Source: Escherichia phage ime
DNA: 64,000 nt
Reading direction: 5' to 3' (one strand)
Sequence record: MN850576.1
Positions 8,813 to 42,502 of this stretch are shown here, piece after piece. The notes beneath the pieces are model-generated. The model was not told where the DNA came from and did no database searches. It saw nothing but the letters and a program-made list of their open reading frames with translations. Positions within the stretch are counted from its first letter, which is position 1. Each line of letters begins with the position of its first letter. The position numbers and the translations under genes are program-made.

Positions 8813-9211
8813 GTGAAAAATAAACTGTTCAAAGTTACAATGAAAATTCGCGGAGCTTGGAGCGTAAAGCAAGGGCGTATCCCAGAATTTGAGAAAGACT
8901 TCTACGTAGTCTCCACCTCGGAGGAGGCTGCATGCTGGCAGGCTGGCTATGCATATGCAAGAACCTGGTACGAAGGATACCAGACTGGTGGCTATGACGG
9001 AGAAATTATCAGCAAGGGTGTAGAAGAAATTAATGTGTTGACAAGTGAAAAAGTTTTTGTTATAGTGCATCCAGATTCCAGAGTGAAGCATTACTGGAAT
9101 GCCAGAACAAAAACTTGGACACCGTTTGCAGATTCTGCTACACCACTTTTAAACCAGAAAGCTCTTGACTCTGTCCCGAGCTATGGGGTTGTTGAAGAAA
9201 AGCTAAACTGA
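8813..9211 (+). CDS. hypothetical protein (paralog of 11018..11413)
   Basis: Shared FVxxHPxSxxxYW...WTP motif. Confidence 0.5.
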   Translation: MKNKLFKVTMKIRGAWSVKQGRIPEFEKDFYVVSTSEEAACWQAGYAYARTWYEGYQTGGYDGEIISKGVEEINVLTSEKVFVIVHPDSRVKHYWNARTKTWTPFADSATPLLNQKALDSVPSYGVVEEKLN

Positions 9212-10417: not shown

Positions 10418-10681
10418 ATGATTGTTTATTTTAAAACTTCAGGTGGATACCCTGATTCTCAAAGCTTGATCGGAAAAACGTGCACAGCATACTCACCTCT
10501 TGATGAGGAGGTAGGCGATATTCTACGAAATATGTATCGGATTGATCCTCAAGAAGCTTTTGATCAAAACCTTGTATTTGTCAAGGGCTCAGACATGAAG
10601 TCTTTGGGAGCATTCCCTGAAGCAGATGATGATGCCGTTTATTCGTTCATGACCCCTTTTGAAGCTATGGTTGTTGGGTGA
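10418..10681 (+). CDS. small protein, paralog family A
   Basis: LVFVKGSDMKSLGA motif. Confidence 0.5.
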   Translation: MIVYFKTSGGYPDSQSLIGKTCTAYSPLDEEVGDILRNMYRIDPQEAFDQNLVFVKGSDMKSLGAFPEADDDAVYSFMTPFEAMVVG

Positions 10682-10685
10682 TAAT

Positions 10686-11018
10686 ATGAAAGTACGCTTT
10701 ATTGGTGAAACAATTCCTGTGCATCTCCGGTCGCCTGAGGATTCTGCAGATCTTGCATCTCAAAAGGCGAGAGGTTATGATAAGAAAGTAACCTCAACTG
10801 ATGTAGTGCTTGAGGCTACTAGTCTACCTGACCCTGCTGCATTCTTTAATCATTATGGGTACTATTTCAGCAATCTGATGAATATCGGTGAGCTTGTGTT
10901 TATTAGTGGTGGAGAGATTGTTAGCAAGCTTGGCGGCGATCCGGATGTCTTTCATGAAACCTGTCCTTTTGCATTTGTGGTAGGTTCAGATGTGGAAGTT
11001 ATTGAGGAGGTGCGGTAA
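10686..11018 (+). CDS. small protein, paralog family A
   Basis: MKVRFIGE...VVGSDVEVIEE; ATG 10686. Confidence 0.5.
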   Translation: MKVRFIGETIPVHLRSPEDSADLASQKARGYDKKVTSTDVVLEATSLPDPAAFFNHYGYYFSNLMNIGELVFISGGEIVSKLGGDPDVFHETCPFAFVVGSDVEVIEEVR

Positions 11019-11413
11019 TGGTAAGCCTATACCGTGTTGAGTATAGCTCAGATACTGTATACAACGTAAGAAGCAAAGATCGCAGCGACAGAGTGCAAGA
11101 AATGTATGTTCTTGCCGACAGTCCGTTATCTGCAGCGTTCAAGGCAGGGGCTCTTGCATCTCGTTGGAAATTTGAAGGCGGATCTTTCTATGAAGAAACC
11201 CTTGAAGATTCTGTTGTTATTTCTTCTGTAGAGGTTTCAGATGACTACGAAGGGAAAAAGTTCGTAATGCGGCACCCACACAGCAACATTGCGTACTACT
11301 GGGATGTTCTGAACAACGAGTGGACCCCAGATCTTCAGAAGGCTACTGTGCTAACACCGTTTTTGGCAGATAAGTTCCCACCAGAAGGTAATTTATCCGC
11401 ACTGTTTCAGTAA
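11018..11413 (+). CDS. hypothetical protein (paralog of 8813..9211)
   Basis: Shared HPxSNIAYYWD...WTP motif. Confidence 0.5.
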   Translation: MVSLYRVEYSSDTVYNVRSKDRSDRVQEMYVLADSPLSAAFKAGALASRWKFEGGSFYEETLEDSVVISSVEVSDDYEGKKFVMRHPHSNIAYYWDVLNNEWTPDLQKATVLTPFLADKFPPEGNLSALFQ

Positions 11414-11492
11414 TTTTCTTGCACACAGGTGTTGACAACGCCAACCCTGTGTGAAATAATACCTTCATCTTAACAAGACAGGAGACCGATTG

Positions 11493-11750
11493 ATGAAGAT
11501 TAAATTGAAAAACCTTGAAACGGCAGAGATTCAGGACGGTGTTGATTTCCGTTCTAAAGATGGTGACATCTTAGAGGTAAATATTCCAACCTACGAGCTG
11601 ATTAAAGGTTTTGGCAACGTTCCGGAAGAGGATATTACAGAAATTCTTATGATGTTGATTCTTGACGGAACTGTGTTTGTAGGTGAAGGTGAGAACGCTA
11701 TTGCAATCCCAGGCCATTTTTATGAAGTAGTTGACGAAGAGGTGCTGTAA
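11493..11750 (+). CDS. small acidic protein (family A-related)
   Basis: ATG 11493 with AGGAGA RBS. Confidence 0.5.
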   Translation: MKIKLKNLETAEIQDGVDFRSKDGDILEVNIPTYELIKGFGNVPEEDITEILMMLILDGTVFVGEGENAIAIPGHFYEVVDEEVL

Positions 11751-12101
11751 ATGAAAGTAGAAATTACCGGTTTTGATGTGAATGTGGTTCCGGAAGATAT
11801 TTTAGCTAAACTTCCAGAAGGTTTTGGTAACGGCGTTGTGGTGGATGCTGTTCCTCCTACCAAAGACATTCTGCTGCAGTATGGTGTAGCAGAGGAAGAT
11901 GTCGATAAAGTTCTTACAATGATGGCAATCGATCGTGTTGTCGTTGTTAAAGGTCTCGATAATTTTGAGAGTGATCCCCTGATTATTCGTGGAGATGACT
12001 ACAAAATCATCGATAATGAAGGCCAAGAGTTCTATGAACCTTGTGCAGAAGATATTCTTAACTTATTACTGGAAGCAGGCACCGAAGAGGAGGACGAATA
12101 A
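11751..12101 (+). CDS. small highly acidic protein
   Basis: ORF track; abutting upstream stop. Confidence 0.5.
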   Translation: MKVEITGFDVNVVPEDILAKLPEGFGNGVVVDAVPPTKDILLQYGVAEEDVDKVLTMMAIDRVVVVKGLDNFESDPLIIRGDDYKIIDNEGQEFYEPCAEDILNLLLEAGTEEEDE

Positions 12102-12430
12102 TGAAGATTGACCCGTTACTGAAGGCTCGTGCAGAAAAAGCGTACACTATTAAGCTGACTAATCTGGTTCCTACTTGTCATCCGGATGTAGGTTGGCCCG
12201 AAGGTCTGGTAGAGGGAACTGTAACAGCTGCATACCTTCCTAACATCAAGTACCTTATGGAGATCTTAGAGATGGATGAGGAAACTGCAGAACAGTTCCA
12301 GTTAGATATGAAACAGAGTGGGACTCTGGTTATTCACGGGTGGTATAATACTAAAGATGCAGAAGACCCTCTGGTAACTTCTAATCTGGCATATGAAATC
12401 TTAGGGCCTTTGAACCTGGAGGAAGACTAA
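12101..12430 (+). CDS. small acidic protein
   Basis: ORF track; TAATG overlap. Confidence 0.5.
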   Translation: MKIDPLLKARAEKAYTIKLTNLVPTCHPDVGWPEGLVEGTVTAAYLPNIKYLMEILEMDEETAEQFQLDMKQSGTLVIHGWYNTKDAEDPLVTSNLAYEILGPLNLEED

Positions 12431-12717
12431 TGAAAGATCTGGTTAAGATTAAGATTAAAGATACCAATGGAGAACTCAGCCATTTTGGAATTAATGATGG
12501 TGACGAGCTGATCGCACACCTGCCTACTAAGGAGGTTGTAAGCAAAGCAGTTGCCGGAGAAGAAGCTGCAATGCAGGCTGCAGGTGTGGATGAAAACTAT
12601 GTAGCTATGTGCATGTGCCGAGATCAGGTTGTTCTGTATAAAGCGTATCGACCAAACGGAGCCACGGAGTGGCTTGTATTCCGACCCGAAGGATATGAAA
12701 TCTTAGAGGCACTATGA
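12430..12717 (+). CDS. hypothetical protein
   Basis: ORF track; TAATG overlap. Confidence 0.5.
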   Translation: MKDLVKIKIKDTNGELSHFGINDGDELIAHLPTKEVVSKAVAGEEAAMQAAGVDENYVAMCMCRDQVVLYKAYRPNGATEWLVFRPEGYEILEAL

Positions 12718-12806
12718 TAAATCTTGCCAAGGTTGCAACGGCACTGTTAATTATTTGCTGGTCTGTAACCTTAACACTGTGTCTTGTATTTCAGTGAGGT
12801 GCTTGT

Positions 12807-13070
12807 ATGAACATCCTGATGTGGGTTATAGCAGTGGCGTTTGTTGCATGTTTTTGCTGCTGGGTTGCGGTGAGGATTTCTGTAGCTACCCTTCGGAAGT
12901 TGGGGTTCTCAGAATGGGATATTAATATCCTTTCTTTTCGCAATGAAACAATCTCAGCCGCCCTGCTTTGTAAGAAATTCAAGTGGGAACCTTGTGAGGT
13001 CATGAGCTATCTAAGAACAGGCGATATCCCTGAAAGATTTAAAAAAGTTCTTGACGGCAAGGATAAATGA
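12807..13070 (+). CDS. small membrane protein
   Basis: ORF track; hydrophobic N-terminus. Confidence 0.45.
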   Translation: MNILMWVIAVAFVACFCCWVAVRISVATLRKLGFSEWDINILSFRNETISAALLCKKFKWEPCEVMSYLRTGDIPERFKKVLDGKDK

Positions 13071-13225
13071 CAGTATAGTGACTAACAAGAGGTGAGGAGT
13101 GACTGATTTTACTGAAGCTTTAATGATGGCCTTGTCTGTTTTAGCGCTATCGGTGTGTTTTGGGGCGTTATTCACATCTCTGGTTAAAGTTTTACATACA
13201 GTATTATTACCCAAGGAGCGCAGTA

Positions 13226-13477
13226 ATGACGAAGATTGACTTGAATGCTGGCGACCATGTTGTTGTCAAATGCATCGGAGATTATCTTGGATTCACAATC
13301 GGTAATACTTACGAGGCGGTAGTGGCGAAGGTTTATCATGATAAAGTCCTCAGTCTTGTATTTGACTGCGATGATGATGGAGATGACCGATACGTCTGTG
13401 AGGTGCTGGCACGAGACGACAGTGAAGACCAGAAATTCTTGGTTATTGAACTGAACGGTATTTTTGTAGAACGTTAA
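13226..13477 (+). CDS. hypothetical protein
   Basis: ATG 13226 with CAAGGAG RBS. Confidence 0.45.
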   Translation: MTKIDLNAGDHVVVKCIGDYLGFTIGNTYEAVVAKVYHDKVLSLVFDCDDDGDDRYVCEVLARDDSEDQKFLVIELNGIFVER

Positions 13478-13505
13478 TTTAAAACAACATAAGGGGACTC
13501 TTACT

Positions 13506-13811
13506 ATGGCTAAATCTAAAGTTGAACTGTTCACCTCTCTTCCTTCTGACACTGCAGAGCGTGATCGCCTTCGCAAGACAATCGAAGAACTGGTGGAACT
13601 CCAACTTCAGATTAAAGATCTGAAAGATGCCATTAAGGATATCATTCTCGTTGAGAAGCAGGATCACCTGTATTCTCCTAAATTCATCAAATCTCTGGTG
13701 GCTACCGAGTTCGATATTCGCTATGAGGCTGAAAAACGTCGAGCTAAAATCGAAGAAGAGGTTGAGCACATGTCCGAGGCAGACATTCTGTTCAAACGCT
13801 CTGTAGAATAA
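13506..13811 (+). CDS. hypothetical coiled-coil protein
   Basis: TAAGGGGA RBS. Confidence 0.5.
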   Translation: MAKSKVELFTSLPSDTAERDRLRKTIEELVELQLQIKDLKDAIKDIILVEKQDHLYSPKFIKSLVATEFDIRYEAEKRRAKIEEEVEHMSEADILFKRSVE

Positions 13812-13820
13812 TGACAAAAA

Positions 13821-13845
13821 GAGGGGCCCAAGCCCCTCTTTTTAC
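13821..13845 (+). terminator. rho-independent terminator
   Basis: GAGGGGC-CCAA-GCCCCTC followed by TTTTT. Confidence 0.6.
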
Positions 13846-14867: not shown

Positions 14868-15080
14868 ATGATAAACACACATGCATCTGAAGAGACATCC
14901 AAAGGAGTGACTATATGTCCCTTGGCTGAGCCAGTGAAAGAGGAAAACTTAGATTCTGAAGATTCTCCATCTTCGCTCCAGGTAGATCCTGAGGCTGATG
15001 ACCTAACGTGGGAAGACATCGTAGATATCTGGTTCTCTATTATGCCTGAGCACGAAGAGTTCAGGGGTGGTAGACTATGA
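14868..15080 (+). CDS. small highly acidic protein
   Basis: ORF track; D/E-rich; start context weak. Confidence 0.35.
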   Translation: MINTHASEETSKGVTICPLAEPVKEENLDSEDSPSSLQVDPEADDLTWEDIVDIWFSIMPEHEEFRGGRL

Positions 15081-15201
15081 AGCACCGAGCCCACACAGGT
15101 TCCTCATGCTAAAGCATGGCCTGAAGAGGCAAACGTGCATAATTCCTGTGCATCGGAACGTATAAAACCCTGTTCACACTCTCATTTCCAGAGGAGATTT
15201 C

Positions 15202-15417
15202 ATGAAGATAGAAATATTTGGTGGAGCTGACAACACTCGTGGCCTGATTTACCTTGAATTCGATGAATCATACCTGCCAGAGGTGTTAAATATGGACTCT
15301 GTTGCTGATGCTTTGGGAGTAAGTCCTAAAGATCTCTACTCTGGTGCTGAGATTGATGGTTGGGAGGAGACCATGAACATTGATTTCAGTGAAGTAGGTG
15401 ATGAACCACTGGACTGA
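15202..15417 (+). CDS. small acidic protein (family A-related)
   Basis: GAGGAGA RBS. Confidence 0.5.
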   Translation: MKIEIFGGADNTRGLIYLEFDESYLPEVLNMDSVADALGVSPKDLYSGAEIDGWEETMNIDFSEVGDEPLD

Positions 15418-15546
15418 CACACAATTAGCTGCCAGGCTAAAGTGCTGGAAGCGCACCTATAACACATCTTTCAACTAAATTTCCTACCACCACAATCACT
15501 TACCTCCCACACATGACTGTTTGCTTGTTTAGTGAGCAGTCATGCC

Positions 15547-15574
15547 TTGACATTCTTGCCTATCCTGATAAAAT
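15547..15574 (+). promoter_or_regulatory. sigma70-like promoter reading into ORF-free region
   Basis: TTGACA 15547-15552, TAAAAT 15569-15574; no ORF of 60 aa or more for ~2 kb downstream. Confidence 0.4.
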
Positions 15575-16992
15575 TAAGTTCTTCTCTTTTCTTTTACCGA
15601 GTAATTCGGGTTTTCTGTTCTCTTCGGTTTGAAGGGGTATGGAGATACACCTGAGTGAACAGGGTGAACAACCGAACCATTGGCTATGGCATTAGCATGG
15701 CGAAGCGGACGGGTGACGAAAGAGGGGCCGGAGGACACCAGTCACTGCCATATGGTATATGGGTGATAACCTGAAGAGTCTGAATAAGTGTTTAAGTACC
15801 AGTCAGAGGAAAAGGTGAATGGTAGCCGAAGGGGGAGGGGGGTTTCTTGTATCTTTAATTTGTATATTATGTATACACTTGTAAACCAATCTCATCTGAA
15901 TCTGTTTACCACACAAAGCGGATAGAGACAAATATCACCTATTAAACTTGAATTATTTATAGAAAATACCACAACACCACTTAAGTCTTTGATTTTACAC
16001 ACAAATCCTACAGATATTCAACCTCCATATTTAACATACTTGTAACATATTCCATACTCTACCTGTCTGATCAATCTACCCAACCACATCCTTCATATTT
16101 TCCCTGTCTGTACCACCCCTGCCCCGCCGGGAGTCCCGTCATATCTGGCTTTCCAGTAAATAGCACACCCACAAATATCATTGCCTGAAGAGGGTTTCAT
16201 CCCATAATACATGCCTTACCTGAAGAGCGCTTCATACACCACGTAAATTTTTTAATTGACCTGCAATTTTCCCGTCATGACCCCCCCCCTGCCCCGCCGG
16301 AGAGGTTGGCTTTTCCCACACAGACCTGAAGAGTCAGCCAGAAATATCTGAACAGGTCCAGTTCTGCCTTGTCATGAGCCGTAGCGACTGGAGTGCTGCC
16401 AGGCGGACGGAATGGGAATACTTCTCATTCTTATAATAATTCTCAAATATCGAGGCAGTGAGGCAAATTAATAGGTGAGGCCGTTCACACAGTGGCACAA
16501 CATTTGCAATCTATTTTGTGAGGGTGAATGAGAATACCTATCATTGTGAGAACCTTTATCATTACGGGCAATTTAACATAATACCCATTATGCGCACCAC
16601 TGGCGATACATACAGGGATTGATACCATGAGTTACAGTTTACGCATATAACAATCATATTTCTTACTATTTGTGTGGGATATAGTTAGCAACCAATAGAT
16701 TAGATATTGACCTACAGACTTCCAACCGTCTAGACGTCTAAACGCCCACACACCAAGGGTTATACATACATTACTGAATGTAAACAGGGCCGCAAAAATG
16801 CTACCATACCAGTTTGTAAATTTTTCATGCAGCACTTGACAAAGAGGAGAAAAACTTGTCTGACATAATGTGACCTAACTGACACAACATGACACTTTTA
16901 CACACCTATTAGTTTACACACTGGATTGTTTACATTCCTGATTGTTCACATGCTAACCATTTACATGATTGACTGTTTACACACCGATAATC

Positions 16993-17244
16993 AGCCATGC
17001 CATTCGTTTGCATGACAATAATTATACATGACAATAATCGCACTGATTATAATTAGCATGACATAATATAAAAGCAGGGCAACTATTAGCAGATCTATAG
17101 TTGCCTTGCTTGTTATGTCATGATTAACTAAATACAAGGCAACTATGATCTGATTAATAGTTTGCAGACAAACTATCACGGGGGTGATGGTTACTGCTTT
17201 TATATTATGTCGCGACTCCGTCGCGCCATGCCATTCGTTTGCAT
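16993..17244. repeat. 20-bp direct repeats (GCCATGCCATTCGTTTGCAT) flanking nested inverted repeats; candidate ori/pac
   Basis: Direct repeats at ~16993-17012 and 17225-17244; inverted-repeat arms 17060-17077/17194-17211; palindrome GGCAACTAT-N10-ATAGTTGCC 17078-17105; ATAGTTTG-CAGA-CAAACTAT 17157-17176. Confidence 0.6.
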
Positions 17245-17859
17245 AGTTGCCTTATTGTTACAGATAAAATAATTGTATTGTTAATTATTTCTTATCTTTC
17301 TATTAGTCATCTAATGATTTCAGTTAATATAGTAACGTACAGTAAACATTAGACGACTAAAGATTTCTCTGCTTATGGTAACCTAACGTGACAATTCCAG
17401 ACTGTTTACGAAAAATGTTGACACCTGGGCCGATTTATGTTATGCAGTTTACACGAATAATTATTTTATGCAGGTATTGACTATTCCGTTATTCTATGGT
17501 TGGAATAAATGCTTAGCAGGCTATAGAATGGCGAGCGTACGTAAATTCTGAGATCTGGCGGCTATAGTTATACTCGATTTTTCACGTAGAAAACGCTTTT
17601 GTAGCTATGTAAGTGTATGACTTATAAAGATTTTTAGTTGTTGACAAGATATTGGAGATGTGCATCAGATTAAATTTTGTGCAATAGCTACATTACGTGC
17701 ACTTTTGGAAGAAAAAACGTGTAAAAATGGCCCTGCTACCACACAATGAAAGATTATGCAATAGTTATTTTATATGTATATTTGTACAGTGTGTGGGATT
17801 AATGGCTAGTCAATTATTCCACTTGCCAGGTAGGGCCGTTTATGGTAGGAGAAGAGCAG

Positions 17860-17888
17860 ACAAAAAGAAAGGGGCCTTTAAGCCCCTT
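17860..17888 (-). terminator. rho-independent terminator (minus strand)
   Basis: GGGGC stem-loop; on minus strand followed by TTCTTTTTGT. Confidence 0.55.
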
Positions 17889-17906
17889 GATAATTCAGTT
17901 AAGAAA

Positions 17907-18326
17907 TTATAATGATTCGTATATTTCAAAAATCCGATTTGCCAGGTCGTTACGGTAGCGGAATTTTTCATCACGCTTGATCATTAAATCCTTATAGCCG
18001 TACTCTTTAAGCACTTCATTAACTTTATGGCGGCATACCTGCATATTATCTTGAGCGTCACCAATAAACTTGTTGCTGTGGTGCATTGCTTTAATTTCTT
18101 CTTCCAGGACCAGGGCAACTACCCGGACCGGATCAAGCTGGTAGGCGGTAACATCCATGCGGCATTGTAGACGGCTTTTAACGTCTGCCACCGGATATAC
18201 TGCAACCTCTTCCCCGTCAACATTAACAATAACTAGTTTACCATCGATTTCGAATCCTTTCGCCGCCGGACCGTGACAAAAAGCGTTATCAAAGCTATAT
18301 GCCGGATTATCAGATTTAATGTTCAT
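17907..18326 (-). CDS. hypothetical protein
   Basis: ORF track. Confidence 0.5.
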   Translation of the reverse strand: MNIKSDNPAYSFDNAFCHGPAAKGFEIDGKLVIVNVDGEEVAVYPVADVKSRLQCRMDVTAYQLDPVRVVALVLEEEIKAMHHSNKFIGDAQDNMQVCRHKVNEVLKEYGYKDLMIKRDEKFRYRNDLANRIFEIYESL

Positions 18327-18433
18327 GGTGTTTTTACCTCTTAGTTAATTTTCTTACAACTTCCCTTCAAAAAGAATATAGCAAAACTGCCGATCCCTGT
18401 CAACCAAGGATAGCATAATTTTTATGTGATCAA

Positions 18434-18449
18434 GGGGCTTTATTGCCCC
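18434..18449 (-). promoter_or_regulatory. GC-rich intergenic hairpin (GGGGC-N6-GCCCC)
   Basis: Palindrome seen in sequence. Confidence 0.4.
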
Positions 18450-18469
18450 TGACCATGTAACTTGTTGTA

Positions 18470-18733
18470 TTATTTGTTGCTCATCCAGTTTTCCCAAGCT
18501 GCCTGATAATCTGCCTCACTACGGCGGATCTCTTCTTGTTCTTCACGCCGGATCTCTTCTTCCAGGTACCCCAGTATATCGGCTTTTTTGGTCTGGCGTA
18601 ACATCCAATCATCTTTTTTACGAGTAAAGATCTTATAAGCTTTCTCGCAAACCTCTTTTTTGCTACCTTTCTGGACTTCAAGAATTCTGTAGGCCATGTA
18701 CTGAACTAATTTAAGCTGATCCAGACGTTTCAT
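18470..18733 (-). CDS. hypothetical protein
   Basis: ORF track. Confidence 0.45.
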   Translation of the reverse strand: MKRLDQLKLVQYMAYRILEVQKGSKKEVCEKAYKIFTRKKDDWMLRQTKKADILGYLEEEIRREEQEEIRRSEADYQAAWENWMSNK

Positions 18734-40423: not shown

Positions 40424-42502
40424 TTAAAAAGGTGTTTCATCATCCTCAAAACCAGGGACCGGATCAGAGGATGGATCATCGTATTGGAGGTCTTCCTGCG
40501 TGTCAATAGGCTTGACAGTGGGTGTTACAACCTTATCAGCCACAACCTTGCCCATAGGTGTTTCTACAACTGCATGCTCCTGATCCTCAAACATAGCCTG
40601 AGGTCTCCAAACAACCTCCCCACCTTCTCCGTCTGTAAACATCTGCATTTCTTTGTCCCAGTACCAATTACTGGCATCATGGAACTTACCTGTATGCGGA
40701 TCCATAACTAAAGTGTCAGCAATACCTAAAGTTTTTGCTGGACGGTTTTTAAGACCTACCAGACGGACACGTCCACGAGAACGATCCACCATTTCTTCGG
40801 CCTCGACACCTATGACTACCCAACTCAACTGTTCAAGCCCAGCCGATCCTCGCAAATTCTCTTTTCGCACAGGATACCAGAAAGGTAATGGGTTACCATC
40901 CTTGTCCTTAGGGGGCACAATCTCTGTACGTTTGAGGTGAGCGATCACCAAGATAAACACGTTAAACTGCTTACAAAACGCAGCCAGTTGGGTCATAGCC
41001 ATGTCCAGTTCTTTTCGCTCATCCTTAACATTAAGCCCTGAAATTACCATGGACAGGTGATCCAGCACAATATAACGACAATGGTACAGGCAAACCATTT
41101 GCTTAAGCTTGGTAATCAACTCGTCCACTGGAATAGACCCGAAATGTTTGAACACTTTGATTTTTCCAGCTTTTGCCCATGATTGGTGAATCTCTGCGTG
41201 TTCTTGATCAGTTAAAAACTGGCTAGGATCTTCAACAAACTCTTTAACATCAAACCCTAACTGGTTTGCATACAAGGAGTTAATTGCTTCCTCTGGGTCC
41301 TCCTCAAGATGGATCATACATAGACGATCATCCTCTTCATAGTCATCAGCCTTCGGGCATGTTGGGTCCATTAGGTATCTTGCAATACAATGTTCCAGTT
41401 TTTTAGCTACGGTTGTTTTACCGCCACCTGATGGGCCTGTAAGCATTACAAGTGTCCCCTTGTGCAAGCCTTTTAACATTTTTTGCAGTTTTGGGAACTC
41501 TGCACTGATATCTACCCCGTTGGAAGTCTTTTTCCGCAAAGACTCGATAGAGAAGTCTTCTAAGTCCGACACAGCATCAGGCACGTATTTAACAGGATGC
41601 CGGAACATGTTGACAATATCTTCCAGCTTTTTAGCCTTCAGCATGTCACGGATATCTTTTACCCCGTCAGGGTCATTTACTTCACCAGGGTATTCTACGT
41701 GGTAAACGTTATCAGCCATCAAAAATGCTGCGATATTGTGCGTGGCCTCAACACCTTTAATGACGTGTTTTTGCTTCTCTACCTCGTTGGCTGCATCGTT
41801 ATCCATTGCCAGCACAACTGTTCCATAGCTACGGATAAACTTCTCATTGTTTGCAAAAGTATCTACTGCGTTTGCACATCCACAGTTAATTCCAACAAAA
41901 GGTAGGCAGGGTTTTCCTGCCAGATCACCACCGTTGATAACTGCATCGATCCCGTCCTGGACCTCTTTAGCCCACTGTTTCACCTTTGCCGGGGCTTTAG
42001 CATTGGTGAGAATCCCTTTTACTTGTATCTGATATGCAGCCTGCCATGCTGCAATAACATCGCCTTCCCCCTCACAAACGTTAATCTGCTTACGGTTGTT
42101 AGAAGATGCACACAGCTTTTGCCCAAACATTTGGGAGTTAGCCTTTACGATCCCAACCGTCGTAAAGTGCCCACGTTGCTCTTTGGGGATCGTCCAGTCA
42201 CGCTTTTTGAAACCGGACAGATTCCCGTAGCGGTCGTAATATGGGAAATATGTTGCAGTAACTGTCACACCGTCTTCTTGGGACAATGCTGATCGCACAC
42301 CAAAATATTGTGCAGCCATCAGACCGATATTTTGTTGTGGGACAGGGACAATTTTAGTATTTTCTAAAACAGTCTCTACAGTTTCAACTTCTTTTTCATC
42401 ACGATAGTCTCGTTTCACACTTCCCCCACTTTTATACTTAGTTGCTTTCGGGTTTGGCTCACCGAAACGGTTGTATGCAGATGCCATAAATTTACTTCCC
42501 AT
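40424..42502 (-). CDS. bifunctional primase-helicase (T7 gp4-like: TOPRIM primase plus DnaB-family helicase)
   Basis: TOPRIM-like CEGEGD/AMDNDAANE; Walker A GPSGGGKT; acidic C-terminus ...FEDDETPF. Confidence 0.85.
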   Translation of the reverse strand: MGSKFMASAYNRFGEPNPKATKYKSGGSVKRDYRDEKEVETVETVLENTKIVPVPQQNIGLMAAQYFGVRSALSQEDGVTVTATYFPYYDRYGNLSGFKKRDWTIPKEQRGHFTTVGIVKANSQMFGQKLCASSNNRKQINVCEGEGDVIAAWQAAYQIQVKGILTNAKAPAKVKQWAKEVQDGIDAVINGGDLAGKPCLPFVGINCGCANAVDTFANNEKFIRSYGTVVLAMDNDAANEVEKQKHVIKGVEATHNIAAFLMADNVYHVEYPGEVNDPDGVKDIRDMLKAKKLEDIVNMFRHPVKYVPDAVSDLEDFSIESLRKKTSNGVDISAEFPKLQKMLKGLHKGTLVMLTGPSGGGKTTVAKKLEHCIARYLMDPTCPKADDYEEDDRLCMIHLEEDPEEAINSLYANQLGFDVKEFVEDPSQFLTDQEHAEIHQSWAKAGKIKVFKHFGSIPVDELITKLKQMVCLYHCRYIVLDHLSMVISGLNVKDERKELDMAMTQLAAFCKQFNVFILVIAHLKRTEIVPPKDKDGNPLPFWYPVRKENLRGSAGLEQLSWVVIGVEAEEMVDRSRGRVRLVGLKNRPAKTLGIADTLVMDPHTGKFHDASNWYWDKEMQMFTDGEGGEVVWRPQAMFEDQEHAVVETPMGKVVADKVVTPTVKPIDTQEDLQYDDPSSDPVPGFEDDETPF

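Follow-up and report, generated by a model that had tools for sequence, protein, structure and literature searches.

The cluster of direct repeats and nested palindromes described here lies beside the terminal repeat of a Vequintavirus (rV5-like coliphage), and we tentatively propose that it acts as a DNA-level protein-binding site for the maturation and packaging of the genome ends. The window, i.e. the whole stretch of 64 000 nucleotides that was analysed (Escherichia phage ime, MN850576.1), contains the terminal repeat once, followed on its right by a module (16861–17262) in which the cluster occupies the segment 133–384 bp from the repeat. The initial annotation had placed the cluster in a gene-free gap between convergent gene blocks; the gap is indeed devoid of genes, the blocks on either side converge, and it is in fact the concatemer junction. 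Of the three readings offered at that time, namely, a replication origin, a packaging site or an inserted element, the packaging site gains strong positional support from the adjoining terminal repeat, whereas the inserted element can be rejected.

The genome ends were mapped in relatives that are 94–95% identical over the stretch, rather than in the phage of the window itself. In both HdK5 and EdH4 the first 459 bp are the same as the last 459 bp and map to 16402–16860, and Korf et al. reported terminal redundancies of 458 bp with abrupt read ends. Furthermore, records MT884009.2 and MT884011.2 begin at the same base as the left end of the repeat, the Gotham record carries an annotated 459-bp repeat_region at its end, and a tandem duplication in CM1 breaks at 16402. 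The end coordinates are backed by the records of three groups and by the CM1 duplication, which comes from the record of a fourth. Several papers describe the genus as circularly permuted, which is explained at least in part by transposase-based libraries that hide ends. In the rV5 genome map (PMC3606486) this region is an unexplained ‘non-coding’ box. The elements of the junction are as follows, in order of position:

16355–16401: indel-hypervariable DNA immediately to the left of the terminal repeat, with a conserved GGAGYGCTGCCA at its end
16402–16860: direct terminal repeat, 459 bp, present here as a single copy, as it would be in a concatemer or in an assembly that has collapsed; virion DNA begins on the left with GGCGGACGGAATGGG and finishes on the right with ...GAGAAAAACTTGTC
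16861–16896: array 1, TGACAYAAYR-type units with a period of 10–11 bp, starting at the first base past the terminal repeat
16897–16988: array 2, about six units of ~16 bp, (A)CTGTTTACR type
16994–17013, plus strand: left 20-bp direct repeat GCCATGCCATTCGTTTGCAT
17011–17056: variable spacer, with CATGACAATAAT present twice here; median identity 48%
17057–17262: near-invariant core, 206 bp, defined by conservation
17060–17077, plus strand: left 18-nt inverted-repeat arm, GACATAATATAAAAGCAG, which makes up the outer stem of the large palindrome
17072–17111: hairpin 1, 15-bp stem with loop TAGCAGATCT, containing boxes A and B
17076–17086 and 17097–17107: boxes A and B, respectively, both in the stem of hairpin 1
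17136–17146, plus strand: box C, AAGGCAACTAT, which pairs with box B in the large palindrome
17158–17177: hairpin ATAGTTTG-CAGA-CAAACTAT
17171–17192, plus strand: hairpin AACTATCAC-GGGG-GTGATGGTT followed by ACTGCTTTTATATT, a weak terminator-like site
17194–17211, minus strand: right arm of the 18-nt inverted repeat
17211–17225: GC hairpin CGCGAC-TCC-GTCGCG, which abuts the right 20-mer and shows no variation in the alignment
17225–17244, plus strand: right 20-bp direct repeat
17243–17253, minus strand: box D, ATAGTTGCCTT, which overlaps the end of the right 20-mer and is kept in FV3
17253–17340: AT-rich, easily melted tract; median identity 88%, below that of the core

The core lies ~200 bp inside the left physical end, and the boxes are 215–390 bp from the nearer cut. 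The terminal repeat itself is well conserved (median identity to relatives 95%), and the switch from conserved to indel-hypervariable DNA is abrupt at both of its borders. On the right, array 1 differs in copy number among phages and is not alignable between most relatives, and array 2 ranges from no copies (V18) to about 11 (typing phage 5). This variable DNA at both borders points to processing at the ends. A search for a motif common to the two borders that could mark the cut sites found none.

All elements named in the initial annotation could be verified. The two 20-mers are identical (100%), with a start-to-start distance of 231 bp and 211 bp in between, and the arms of the 18-nt inverted repeat are fully complementary (100%). 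The GGCAACTAT unit is repeated as reported, in four copies (17078 and 17138 on the plus strand, 17097 and 17243 on the minus strand), the hairpin with the CAGA loop is found at its reported place, and six upstream GTTTACA-type units recur with a period of ~16 bp throughout 16897–16988. The palindrome with 9-bp arms reported at 17078–17105 exists as GGCAACTAT-N10-ATAGTTGCC, but AGATCT, on which it was said to be centred, lies within the 10-nt loop and is not the exact centre; its arms reach 15 nt (17072–17086 versus 17097–17111, 93%). Three features had not been described: the large nested palindrome at 17056–17211, the (CA)TGACA motif family and the genome end 133 bp upstream.

The repeat lengths were compared with those in 1000 dinucleotide-preserving shuffles of 16500–17800. 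Direct repeats in the shuffles were at most 15 nt long (mean of the longest 10.3) and inverted repeats at most 17 nt (mean of the longest 10.2), with 0/1000 reaching 20 and 18 nt, respectively, and a chance origin of the repeat lengths is excluded. Short motifs are concentrated in the same place: GGCAACTAT occurs four times in the 402 bp of the module and once across the other 61.5 kb (0.007 expected), and CATGACA five and four times, respectively (0.026 expected). Four (A)AGGCAACTAT boxes, in both orientations, fall inside 178 bp, in addition to the TGACA-type and ~16-bp arrays. Moreover, 17056–17211 folds into a single nested palindrome of ~155 bp, in which the 11-bp AAGGCAACTAT occurs three times; the copies contribute to two inverted pairs that resemble operators and are spaced by 60 bp, the second pair consisting of box C and an imperfect box, ATAGTTTGC (17158–17166). 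Folding of the core is far stronger than expected for DNA (z = -9.65) and for RNA of the two strands (z = -8.3 and -8.7). The 60 bp that start at 17253 are the least stable in the 64 kb (GC 18%, -62.1 kcal/mol; mean over the window -80.0 kcal/mol, sd 4.4). From left to right, the layout is arrays, 20-mer, spacer, ~155-bp palindrome, second 20-mer with box D and easily melted DNA.

Poor conservation among relatives, which the initial annotation had named as evidence against a function, is not observed; the core is the best-conserved DNA of the gap. At least 80% of it is covered in 117 of 119 records, and identity is at least 99% in 77 and 95–99% in 32 of the 119. Its median identity is 98.5%, compared to 88–93% in the flanks, 90–95% in adjacent non-coding DNA and about 95% in the neighbouring genes, and the DNA between it and the terminal repeat is a hypervariable short-repeat array. 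The left 20-mer is found in 14 of the 16 relatives examined; V18 has the right copy only and FV3 a single 20-mer, and the left copy carries a C-to-A variant in isim, A147, EPFV3 and FV3. In most relatives the spacer (17011–17056) consists instead of three GC-rich hairpins ending in TTTCTAT. Substitutions in the alignment of relatives fall mostly in loops and spacers, and a 33-bp insertion, corresponding to ~three helical turns, is tolerated between the operator-like pairs in rV5, typing phage 5 and A147. The stem of the hairpin at 17158–17177 carries an uncompensated T-to-A change in four of the 16 phages, and the stem changes of V18 are likewise uncompensated; in naswa the sole stem mismatch, a G-U wobble on the plus strand, is changed to a G-C pair.

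FV3, a propagated phage, lacks exactly the DNA between the 20-mers (17014–17224). Its sequence is that of its nearest relatives, EPFV3 and isim, minus the inter-20-mer DNA, and the variant of the left copy is kept; the remaining 20-mer is the right copy or a recombinant of both. FV3 was considered as an ancestral empty site and rejected, since EPFV3/isim-type DNA minus the interval represents a derived deletion. As FV3 illustrates, a palindrome bracketed by 20-bp direct repeats is easily lost, so its retention elsewhere implies selection. The module would improve fitness but, since FV3 is without it, is probably not strictly essential. Three explanations of FV3 are conceivable: an artefactual record, sufficiency of the remaining 20-mer together with box D and the arrays, or a core that is only an accessory. 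A search of 5,426 E. coli genomes found neither the core nor the 20-mer, and the genome_contigs collection gave no exact match to the 20-mer; the sole match was a marginal one, to 40 bp of the terminal-repeat interior, beside a filamentous prophage. Mimicry of the module by satellites or by the host was rejected, as the core and the 20-mer have no copies in the collections searched.

Under the packaging reading, the module would act as DNA, a protein-binding platform for end maturation. We infer that the boxes are bound by a protein of the phage, for which the small terminase subunit or an accessory factor of end processing would be the most plausible candidates, that the palindrome and its AT-rich flank would permit bending or hairpin extrusion, and that the resulting complex would position the large terminase for cuts at the borders of the terminal repeat. 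A snap-back primer might come from the module, whereby the single repeat of the concatemer would be duplicated to give the two copies of each packaged genome. This reading is supported by the location of the module within a few hundred bp of the mapped ends (16402/16860), as a terminase recognition site requires; the recognition sites characterized so far, e.g. lambda cosB, lie a few hundred bp from the cut. The short repeated elements also form a pattern suited to an oligomeric small terminase, a likeness of pattern only. The large terminase of the phage (TerL) matches Terminase_6N and Terminase_6C, i.e. the T4 type, and its nuclease domain is 37% identical to that of ICP1 TerL. Several points weigh against the packaging reading, among them the lack of any similarity in sequence or motifs to ICP1, the description of the genus as circularly permuted and the mapping of the ends in relatives. 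An essential recognition site should not be deletable, yet FV3 lacks everything between the 20-mers; this objection would lapse if that record is an artefact or if the remaining 20-mer and box D are enough. The true recognition site could, by analogy with ICP1, sit inside 16402–16860 and not in the core. Finally, boxes beside an AT-rich tract suit a replication origin equally well.

Similar arrangements are found at the ends of several other phages. Lambda cosB, which works as DNA, has its gpNu1 sites (R3-I1-R2-R1) beside cosN, and resembles the module in having boxes in both orientations within ~200 bp, on one side of the terminase cut at the left end, with bendable AT-rich DNA near. By contrast, the ends here are 459-bp direct repeats and not 12-nt cohesive ends, no IHF consensus is present, the boxes are in a large palindrome bracketed by 20-mers, 215–390 bp from the cut, and TerL is of the T4 type (Terminase_6); in addition, the core is missing in FV3 and the binding boxes are putative. 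The T7/T3 junction likewise has a short direct repeat that is present once per concatemer and needs duplication, with arrays of short repeats outside both borders and hairpin-forming DNA adjoining; the T7 arrays, SRL and SRR, are said to have been described by Dunn and Studier in 1983. Here, however, the terminase belongs to another family, the phage is a myovirus of about 137 kb, and the palindrome is larger and contains repeated boxes. The genome parts that were examined showed no phage RNA polymerase, nor were promoters for one found at the junction, and the authors of the rV5 genome report sigma-70-type promoters. A hairpin intermediate in the duplication of the T7 terminal repeat is mentioned, by way of citation, in PMC4281155; this hairpin and the repeat and palindrome clusters of T5 described below serve as precedents for the packaging reading.

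Homologous proteins are also shared with ICP1, namely TerL (37%, nuclease domain) and the primase-helicase (48%). Its termini, between gp1 and gp2, fall in an ORF-less stretch of at least 1.3 kb, to which both the packaging signal and the start of late replication have been assigned, and its PhageTerm cut sites are 460 bp apart, which matches the 459-bp repeat here. Nevertheless, the flanking genes diverge in ICP1 and converge here, and ICP1 is described as headful, with a 14-bp signal between the cut sites, whereas the present module lies beyond them. A comparison with the ICP1 terminus region found no sequence, motif or comparable palindrome in common.

A late or secondary replication origin, with the four boxes as iterons and the AT-rich tract (17253–17340) as unwinding element, is the main rival reading, though the less likely one. 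As in iteron origins such as lambda ori and those of iteron plasmids, four boxes, some of them in inverted pairs, lie beside a very AT-rich tract: their number within 178 bp, in both orientations, exceeds the at least three repeats taken as the mark of an iteron array, and the least stable 60 bp of the 64 kb follow directly after box D, in agreement with the AT-rich character of origins. The palindrome could then be a nick or hairpin site for a switch to rolling-circle replication, and, as has been suggested for ICP1, the origin and the onset of packaging may be physically linked; in ICP1 the late rolling-circle start adjoins the termini. T4 and T7 have several origins and tolerate the loss of one, and the viability of FV3 fits such a tolerated loss. 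However, no initiator gene is adjacent, the neighbours being tiny ORFs that match only PHROG families of unknown function. The early theta origin of ICP1 is far from its termini, and its ‘rolling-circle’ coverage pattern could reflect packaging. Cumulative GC skew peaks here and reaches its lowest value near 55 kb, which counts against an origin; the rV5 authors noted that skew tracks the direction of transcription, and we set it aside as uninformative because transcription direction dominates it. The same 9-mer also surrounds an AT-rich stretch beside a VapE-like primase-helicase gene, a typical iteron-origin layout, in L029, an unrelated viral contig. Yet L029 has no protein in common with Vequintavirus and the search was conditioned on the motif, so that the match is most simply a coincidence and was treated as such; the other seven matches in IMG/VR, each to a single palindrome, are about the number expected by chance.

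A further reading, itself unlikely, takes the ~155-bp palindrome for a snap-back or cruciform structure by which late replication is coupled to packaging in phages that combine a T4-type terminase with a short direct terminal repeat. After a nick within the palindrome or next to it, the 3' end would fold back on itself and serve as primer for synthesis across the arrays and the one copy of the repeat; the repeat would be duplicated, both neighbouring genomes would become packageable, and the protein bound to the boxes would load the terminase. If true, this would represent a T7-style solution to the terminal-repeat problem in unrelated large myoviruses (rV5-like and perhaps ICP1-like), which are widely thought of as packaging permuted genomes by the headful. 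The strong selection on a module that can nevertheless be deleted would be accounted for as well, since in its absence maturation would be limited to every second genome.

The palindrome could also be taken for a bidirectional terminator or insulator that stops convergent read-through before it enters the terminal repeat, and parts of it do have this form. Hairpin 1 and its T-tract would end leftward transcripts, and the hairpin at 17171–17192 with the same 18-nt tail would end rightward ones. On the minus strand, hairpin 1 is a predicted intrinsic terminator with a 15-bp stem followed by TTTTATATTAT, its U-rich tail being the left arm (17060–17077), and the Murica and Alma records list it as a terminator; a scan finds a terminator-like site at 17171–17192 on the plus strand. 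The 18-nt arms are exactly the T-rich tails of these two opposed hairpins, and most relatives have an additional GC hairpin followed by TTTCTAT just upstream. Furthermore, the rV5 authors did not find the bidirectional terminators that they had expected between genes 163 and 164. We nonetheless regard this explanation as quite improbable. A strong terminator at 17869–17888 lies past the last minus-strand gene and a terminator-like site at 15597–15609 past the last plus-strand gene, so that little transcription should reach the core. Termination also leaves unexplained the four copies of the 11-mer, the 20-bp repeats, the fact that loops and spacers are conserved too, and a location ~200 bp from the end. 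The gap holds no more terminator-like sites (3) than shuffles would lead one to expect (2.5); promoter-like sites number 17 (11.4 ± 3.3 expected), none of them convincingly placed for a core transcript. A literature search for transcriptome data on the genus gave none usable.

Control of DNA ejection or early handling, in which host or phage proteins would bind the repeats and palindromes near the entering end as at the injection-stop region of T5, is very unlikely. Repeat Region 3 of T5 is a comparably complex, non-coding cluster of direct repeats, inverted repeats and palindromes, including DnaA boxes, where the terminal repeat meets the rest of the genome on its inner side, and its conservation greatly exceeds that of the neighbouring DNA (10.1101/866236). 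In T5, however, the repeat is about 10 kb long and carries the pre-early genes, which makes an ejection stop sensible, whereas here no genes lie between the end and the module and a two-step transfer would express nothing. Likewise, the paired DnaA boxes of T5 have no conserved counterpart: a single exact box, TTTTACACA, is present at 16896, most relatives are without any, and the DnaA boxes of array 2 were rejected as a functional feature. The IHF consensus was not found in the arrays or the core.

A structured non-coding RNA of ~150–200 nt transcribed from the core is highly improbable, despite the very strong RNA folding on both strands, the terminator-like 3' ends and the fact that the only stem mismatch is a G-U on the plus strand that naswa makes G-C. 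DNA folding is equally strong, as for any palindrome, and a convincing promoter is absent on either side. Moreover, the stem changes in the four phages and in V18 are uncompensated, with too little variation in the core for a covariation test, and Rfam 15 (E up to 1) gave no match over 15000–18500, where no tRNA or tmRNA was found either. It is scarcely credible that the cluster records the insertion of a small mobile element that had the 18-nt inverted repeats as its ends and duplicated its target site to give the 20-mers, and this reading was rejected: the inverted repeats are indeed bracketed by direct repeats and FV3 has a single 20-mer with nothing between, but the 20-mers do not abut the inverted repeats (gaps of 46 bp on the left, 13–138 bp in relatives, and 13 bp on the right), the FV3 state is a derived deletion and not an empty site, and the sequence occurs once per phage genome and, in the collections searched, nowhere outside the genus, with no associated transposase.

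The rV5-like phages are of practical importance: few phages are isolated from E. coli more often, therapy cocktails routinely contain them and the BASEL reference collection includes them. Most of the more than 100 deposited genomes of the genus are opened at arbitrary points, and recognition of the ‘non-coding box’ as the concatemer junction would allow their rational orientation and annotation. A near-invariant module next to a 459-bp repeat is also a candidate packaging signal for transducing particles, cosmid-like vectors and engineered phages, and, being small and deletable, offers a means of asking how a repeat present once per concatemer becomes two per virion. The comparison further suggests that the ‘pac’ region of ICP1, where PhageTerm places the cut sites 460 bp from each other, may likewise represent a short terminal repeat of this type. 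A short terminal repeat, of 328 bp, has been reported for Schickermooser, which belongs to a sister genus.

The phage is an rV5-like coliphage of the genus Vequintavirus, and positions 16840-17300 are 100% identical to rV5_ev146 and MaxBurger. The repeat and palindrome cluster at 16993-17244 (hereafter, the module) lies in a gene-free stretch of ~2.5 kb (about 15420-17906) flanked by convergent blocks, which was shown without explanation as a grey "non-coding" box in the rV5 paper (PMC3606486, 2013). A terminal repeat has already been published for the genus, in a single sentence (Korf et al. 2019). In HdK5 and EdH4, the records with ends from that study, the first and last 459 bp are the same, and each copy maps to 16402-16860. 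Two records from another laboratory, MT884009.2 and MT884011.2, start at the same nucleotide and carry the repeat sequence at two places each, and the Gotham record, from a third group, terminates in an annotated 459-bp repeat_region. Furthermore, CM1 (MK962749) contains a perfect 523-bp tandem duplication (1063-2108), the unit of which begins at the equivalent of 16402 and is made up of the terminal repeat and 64 bp of the adjoining array 1; this is probably the product of two ends joined during assembly. Since repeat records from several groups agree, the gap corresponds to the concatemer junction of a direct-terminal-repeat phage. The left virion end is thus predicted at 16402 and the right at 16860, as mapped in relatives that are 94-95% identical here and have borders identical to those in the window, and the module starts 133 bp rightward of the terminal repeat, just inside the left end. 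The genus is described as circularly permuted in several papers, at least in part owing to transposase-based libraries, which hide ends; most of its GenBank records open at positions other than the physical ends. Another perfect duplication, of 546 bp, is found in I29 (ON286975; 141-686 and 735-1280, equivalent to window ~16053-16618), but it is out of register with the terminal-repeat borders and is either real or an assembly artefact. Within the terminal repeat, 40 bp (16564-16603) give a marginal match (90%, E = 5e-4) to unannotated DNA bordering a filamentous (Zot/pII/secretin) prophage, seen in 35 E. coli genomes (9001-9040 in UTI89, L023), which may be due to chance.

All features listed in the initial annotation were found where it had placed them. 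They are given here with the four GGCAACTAT boxes:

16897-16988: GTTTACA-type units of ~16 bp, six copies, upstream
16994-17013 and 17225-17244: 20-mer GCCATGCCATTCGTTTGCAT, two copies
17060-17077 and 17194-17211: 18-nt inverted pair, perfect
17072-17086 and 17097-17111: palindrome GGCAACTAT-N10-ATAGTTGCC, with arms reaching 15 nt (hairpin 1)
17158-17177: hairpin ATAGTTTG-CAGA-CAAACTAT
17076-17086, 17097-17107, 17136-17146 and 17243-17253 (minus): boxes A, B, C and D

In 1000 dinucleotide-preserving shuffles of 16500-17800, the longest direct repeat was 15 nt and the longest inverted repeat 17 nt. Motif counts gave four GGCAACTAT boxes within 402 bp versus one in the other 61.5 kb, and three copies of the 11-mer AAGGCAACTAT at the module versus none elsewhere; CATGACA, absent from the initial list, occurs five times at the module and four times elsewhere. 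The box arrangement comprises one lone box and two inverted pairs that resemble operators and lie 60 bp apart. Upon folding, 17056-17211 forms a single large nested palindrome, in which the 18-nt arms pair together, box A and the loop pair with ~17147-17166, and box B pairs with box C (z-scores of -9.65 for DNA, -8.3 for plus-strand RNA and -8.7 for minus-strand RNA). The least stable 60 bp of the whole 64 kb (GC 18%, 4 sd off the mean) starts at 17253, directly after box D.

The anatomy of the region was drawn from comparison with 16 to 20 relatives. The interior of the terminal repeat has a median identity of 95%, and its last ~45 bp are nearly invariant, with one variable position. The first base after it is the start of array 1, consisting of TGACAYAAYR units with a period of 10-11 bp and a copy number that varies between phages. 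Array 2, composed of ~16-bp ACTGTTTACR units, ranges from 0 copies (V18) to about 11 (typing phage 5), and neither array is alignable between most relatives. The spacer after the left 20-mer is also variable; in most relatives it holds three GC-rich hairpins, CTGGCTATGCCAG, GGTGACCTTTGGTCACC and CACCCCTTCGGGTG, followed by TTTCTAT, and according to the alignment these hairpins are missing from 17014-17056 of the window. The left border of the terminal repeat resembles the right one, being conserved inside and indel-hypervariable just outside. Immediately to its left (16355-16401) lies a 0-80-bp indel block of GACCTACAGGAGYGCT-like units, and further left (15770-16335) are four copies of CCTGAAGAG and two of CTGCCCCGCCGG, annotated as repeat_region in some records.

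The comparison for presence or absence among relatives, put forward in the initial annotation, found the core of the module (17057-17262) in 117 of 119 records, at an identity of at least 99% in 77 and of 95-99% in 32. The neighbouring 638 bp of the same gap are 90-95% identical in 101 of the 119, and the adjacent gene is about 95% identical. The few substitutions in the core fall mostly in hairpin loops and spacers, although four phages have an uncompensated change in the ATAGTTTG stem, and rV5-type phages accommodate 33 extra bp following hairpin 1, between the two operator-like palindromes. Palindromes bracketed by direct repeats are intrinsically prone to deletion, and near-universal retention at 98.5-100% identity therefore argues for strong selection. 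FV3 has a single 20-mer fused directly to box D. Its closest relatives, EPFV3 and isim, carry the full module and share with FV3 a C-to-A variant of the left 20-mer; moreover, the FV3-EPFV3 alignment holds until the left 20-mer ends and resumes where the right one starts. Either FV3 has therefore lost the intervening DNA secondarily, through recombination or slippage involving the two direct repeats, or its record contains a sequencing artefact; an ancestral empty site is ruled out. Nevertheless, the existence of FV3 argues against the module being absolutely essential.

Lying beside a physical end, exceptionally conserved, enriched in boxes, palindromic and adjoined by an easily melted tract, the core would, on what we consider the likeliest reading, act as DNA, as a putative protein-binding platform for genome-end maturation. 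Paired operator-like inverted boxes accompanied by a lone box are typical of sites for oligomeric DNA-binding proteins; judging by position, the obvious candidate for such a protein would be the small terminase subunit or an accessory factor. Each concatemer junction contains one terminal repeat, and therefore cutting at both borders and duplication are required. A large palindrome 200 bp from the terminal repeat would be well placed for a hairpin role in this duplication, and PMC4281155 reports a hairpin intermediate for that of T7. The terminase is of T4 type (Terminase_6N and 6C), and its nuclease domain shares 37% identity with the corresponding domain of Vibrio phage ICP1. The ICP1 genome has its termini within a 1.3-kb region devoid of ORFs, where PhageTerm cut sites fall at 431 and 891 (460 bp apart); a packaging signal maps to this region and the late rolling-circle start maps beside it. 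The ICP1 'pac' region may be a short direct terminal repeat like 16402-16860 rather than a headful pac site. We take the system to be homologous and to have the same end structure, but no sequence or motif is common to ICP1 and the module. The main objections to a role in end maturation are that FV3 is viable and that the ICP1 signal lies between the cut sites, not beyond them. In HdK5, the large-terminase gene is in pieces (10433-13842; Terminase_6N at 13414-13842, Terminase_6C at 10433-11218), parted by genes for an HNH endonuclease and endonuclease VII, which suggests homing-endonuclease or intron-type interruptions.

Functionally, the module resembles lambda cosB, the T7/T3 concatemer junction, T5 Repeat Region 3 and iteron origins, showing some of the defining features of each, with certain others absent, and we would assign it to none of these classes. 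It is best described as a cis-acting element next to a genome end, distinguished by a ~155-bp box-bearing palindrome with 20-bp direct repeats around it, followed by an unwinding-prone tract; a limited literature search found no description of it. The structure is real, strongly selected and of a familiar class of element, whereas its function we infer. It revises where the physical ends lie in a widely used phage genus and provides a compact, testable element with which to study how the terminal repeat is duplicated.

Two of the initial readings, packaging site and replication origin, thus stay plausible. That the module is a late or secondary origin seems rather unlikely, although the boxes adjoin the weakest duplex in the window, a classic layout, redundant origins can be lost, and the late origin of ICP1 adjoins its termini; no initiator is identifiable and GC skew gives no support. 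The primase-helicase (40424-42502, minus strand) is 48% identical to that of ICP1. Six GGCAACTAT boxes and TTGGCAACC variants also surround an extreme AT stretch in contig IMGVR_UViG_3300037721_000035 (4766-5230), with the cluster flanked by a VapE-like primase-helicase gene on one side and, on the other, by a small ORF that precedes a SNF2-helicase gene. This cluster looks like an iteron origin, but the contig has no protein in common with Vequintavirus and, because the search was conditioned on that 9-mer, we regard the likeness as coincidence. A bidirectional terminator or insulator, which may coexist with another function, is improbable: each of the 18-nt arms forms the T-rich tail of one of two opposed hairpins, and hairpin 1 has been annotated as a terminator by others, but the last genes on both sides already have terminators, and the boxes and 20-mers would be left unexplained. 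We give little credence to an ejection-control site of the T5 stop type; the conserved repeats and palindromes clustered at the inner edge of the T5 terminal repeat are strikingly similar (10.1101/866236), yet the module has no genes ahead of it, and DnaA boxes are not conserved. A structured RNA is equally doubtful, given no Rfam match, no convincing promoter and DNA folding that is just as strong. The third initial reading, the footprint of a small mobile element, is rejected as barely conceivable: the inverted repeats are not directly flanked by the 20-mers, the distance on the left side varies, each genome has a single copy, and FV3, not being an ancestral empty site, no longer provides the main support for this reading. 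A search of 5,426 E. coli genomes found nothing similar to the core or 20-mer, and the genome_contigs collection contained no exact match to the 20-mer.

Beside the gap, an ORF of 139 aa (17907-18326, minus strand) is missing from FV3, nimi, HdK5 and EdH4, a presence/absence polymorphism adjoining the junction; its sole match is a PHROG family of unknown function. Finally, ~18-20 'Campylobacter phage' records in the phage collection are Vequintavirus by sequence and probably represent contaminants or mislabelled entries; for A147, the header flags the record as UNVERIFIED and gives Vequintavirus in the taxonomy line.
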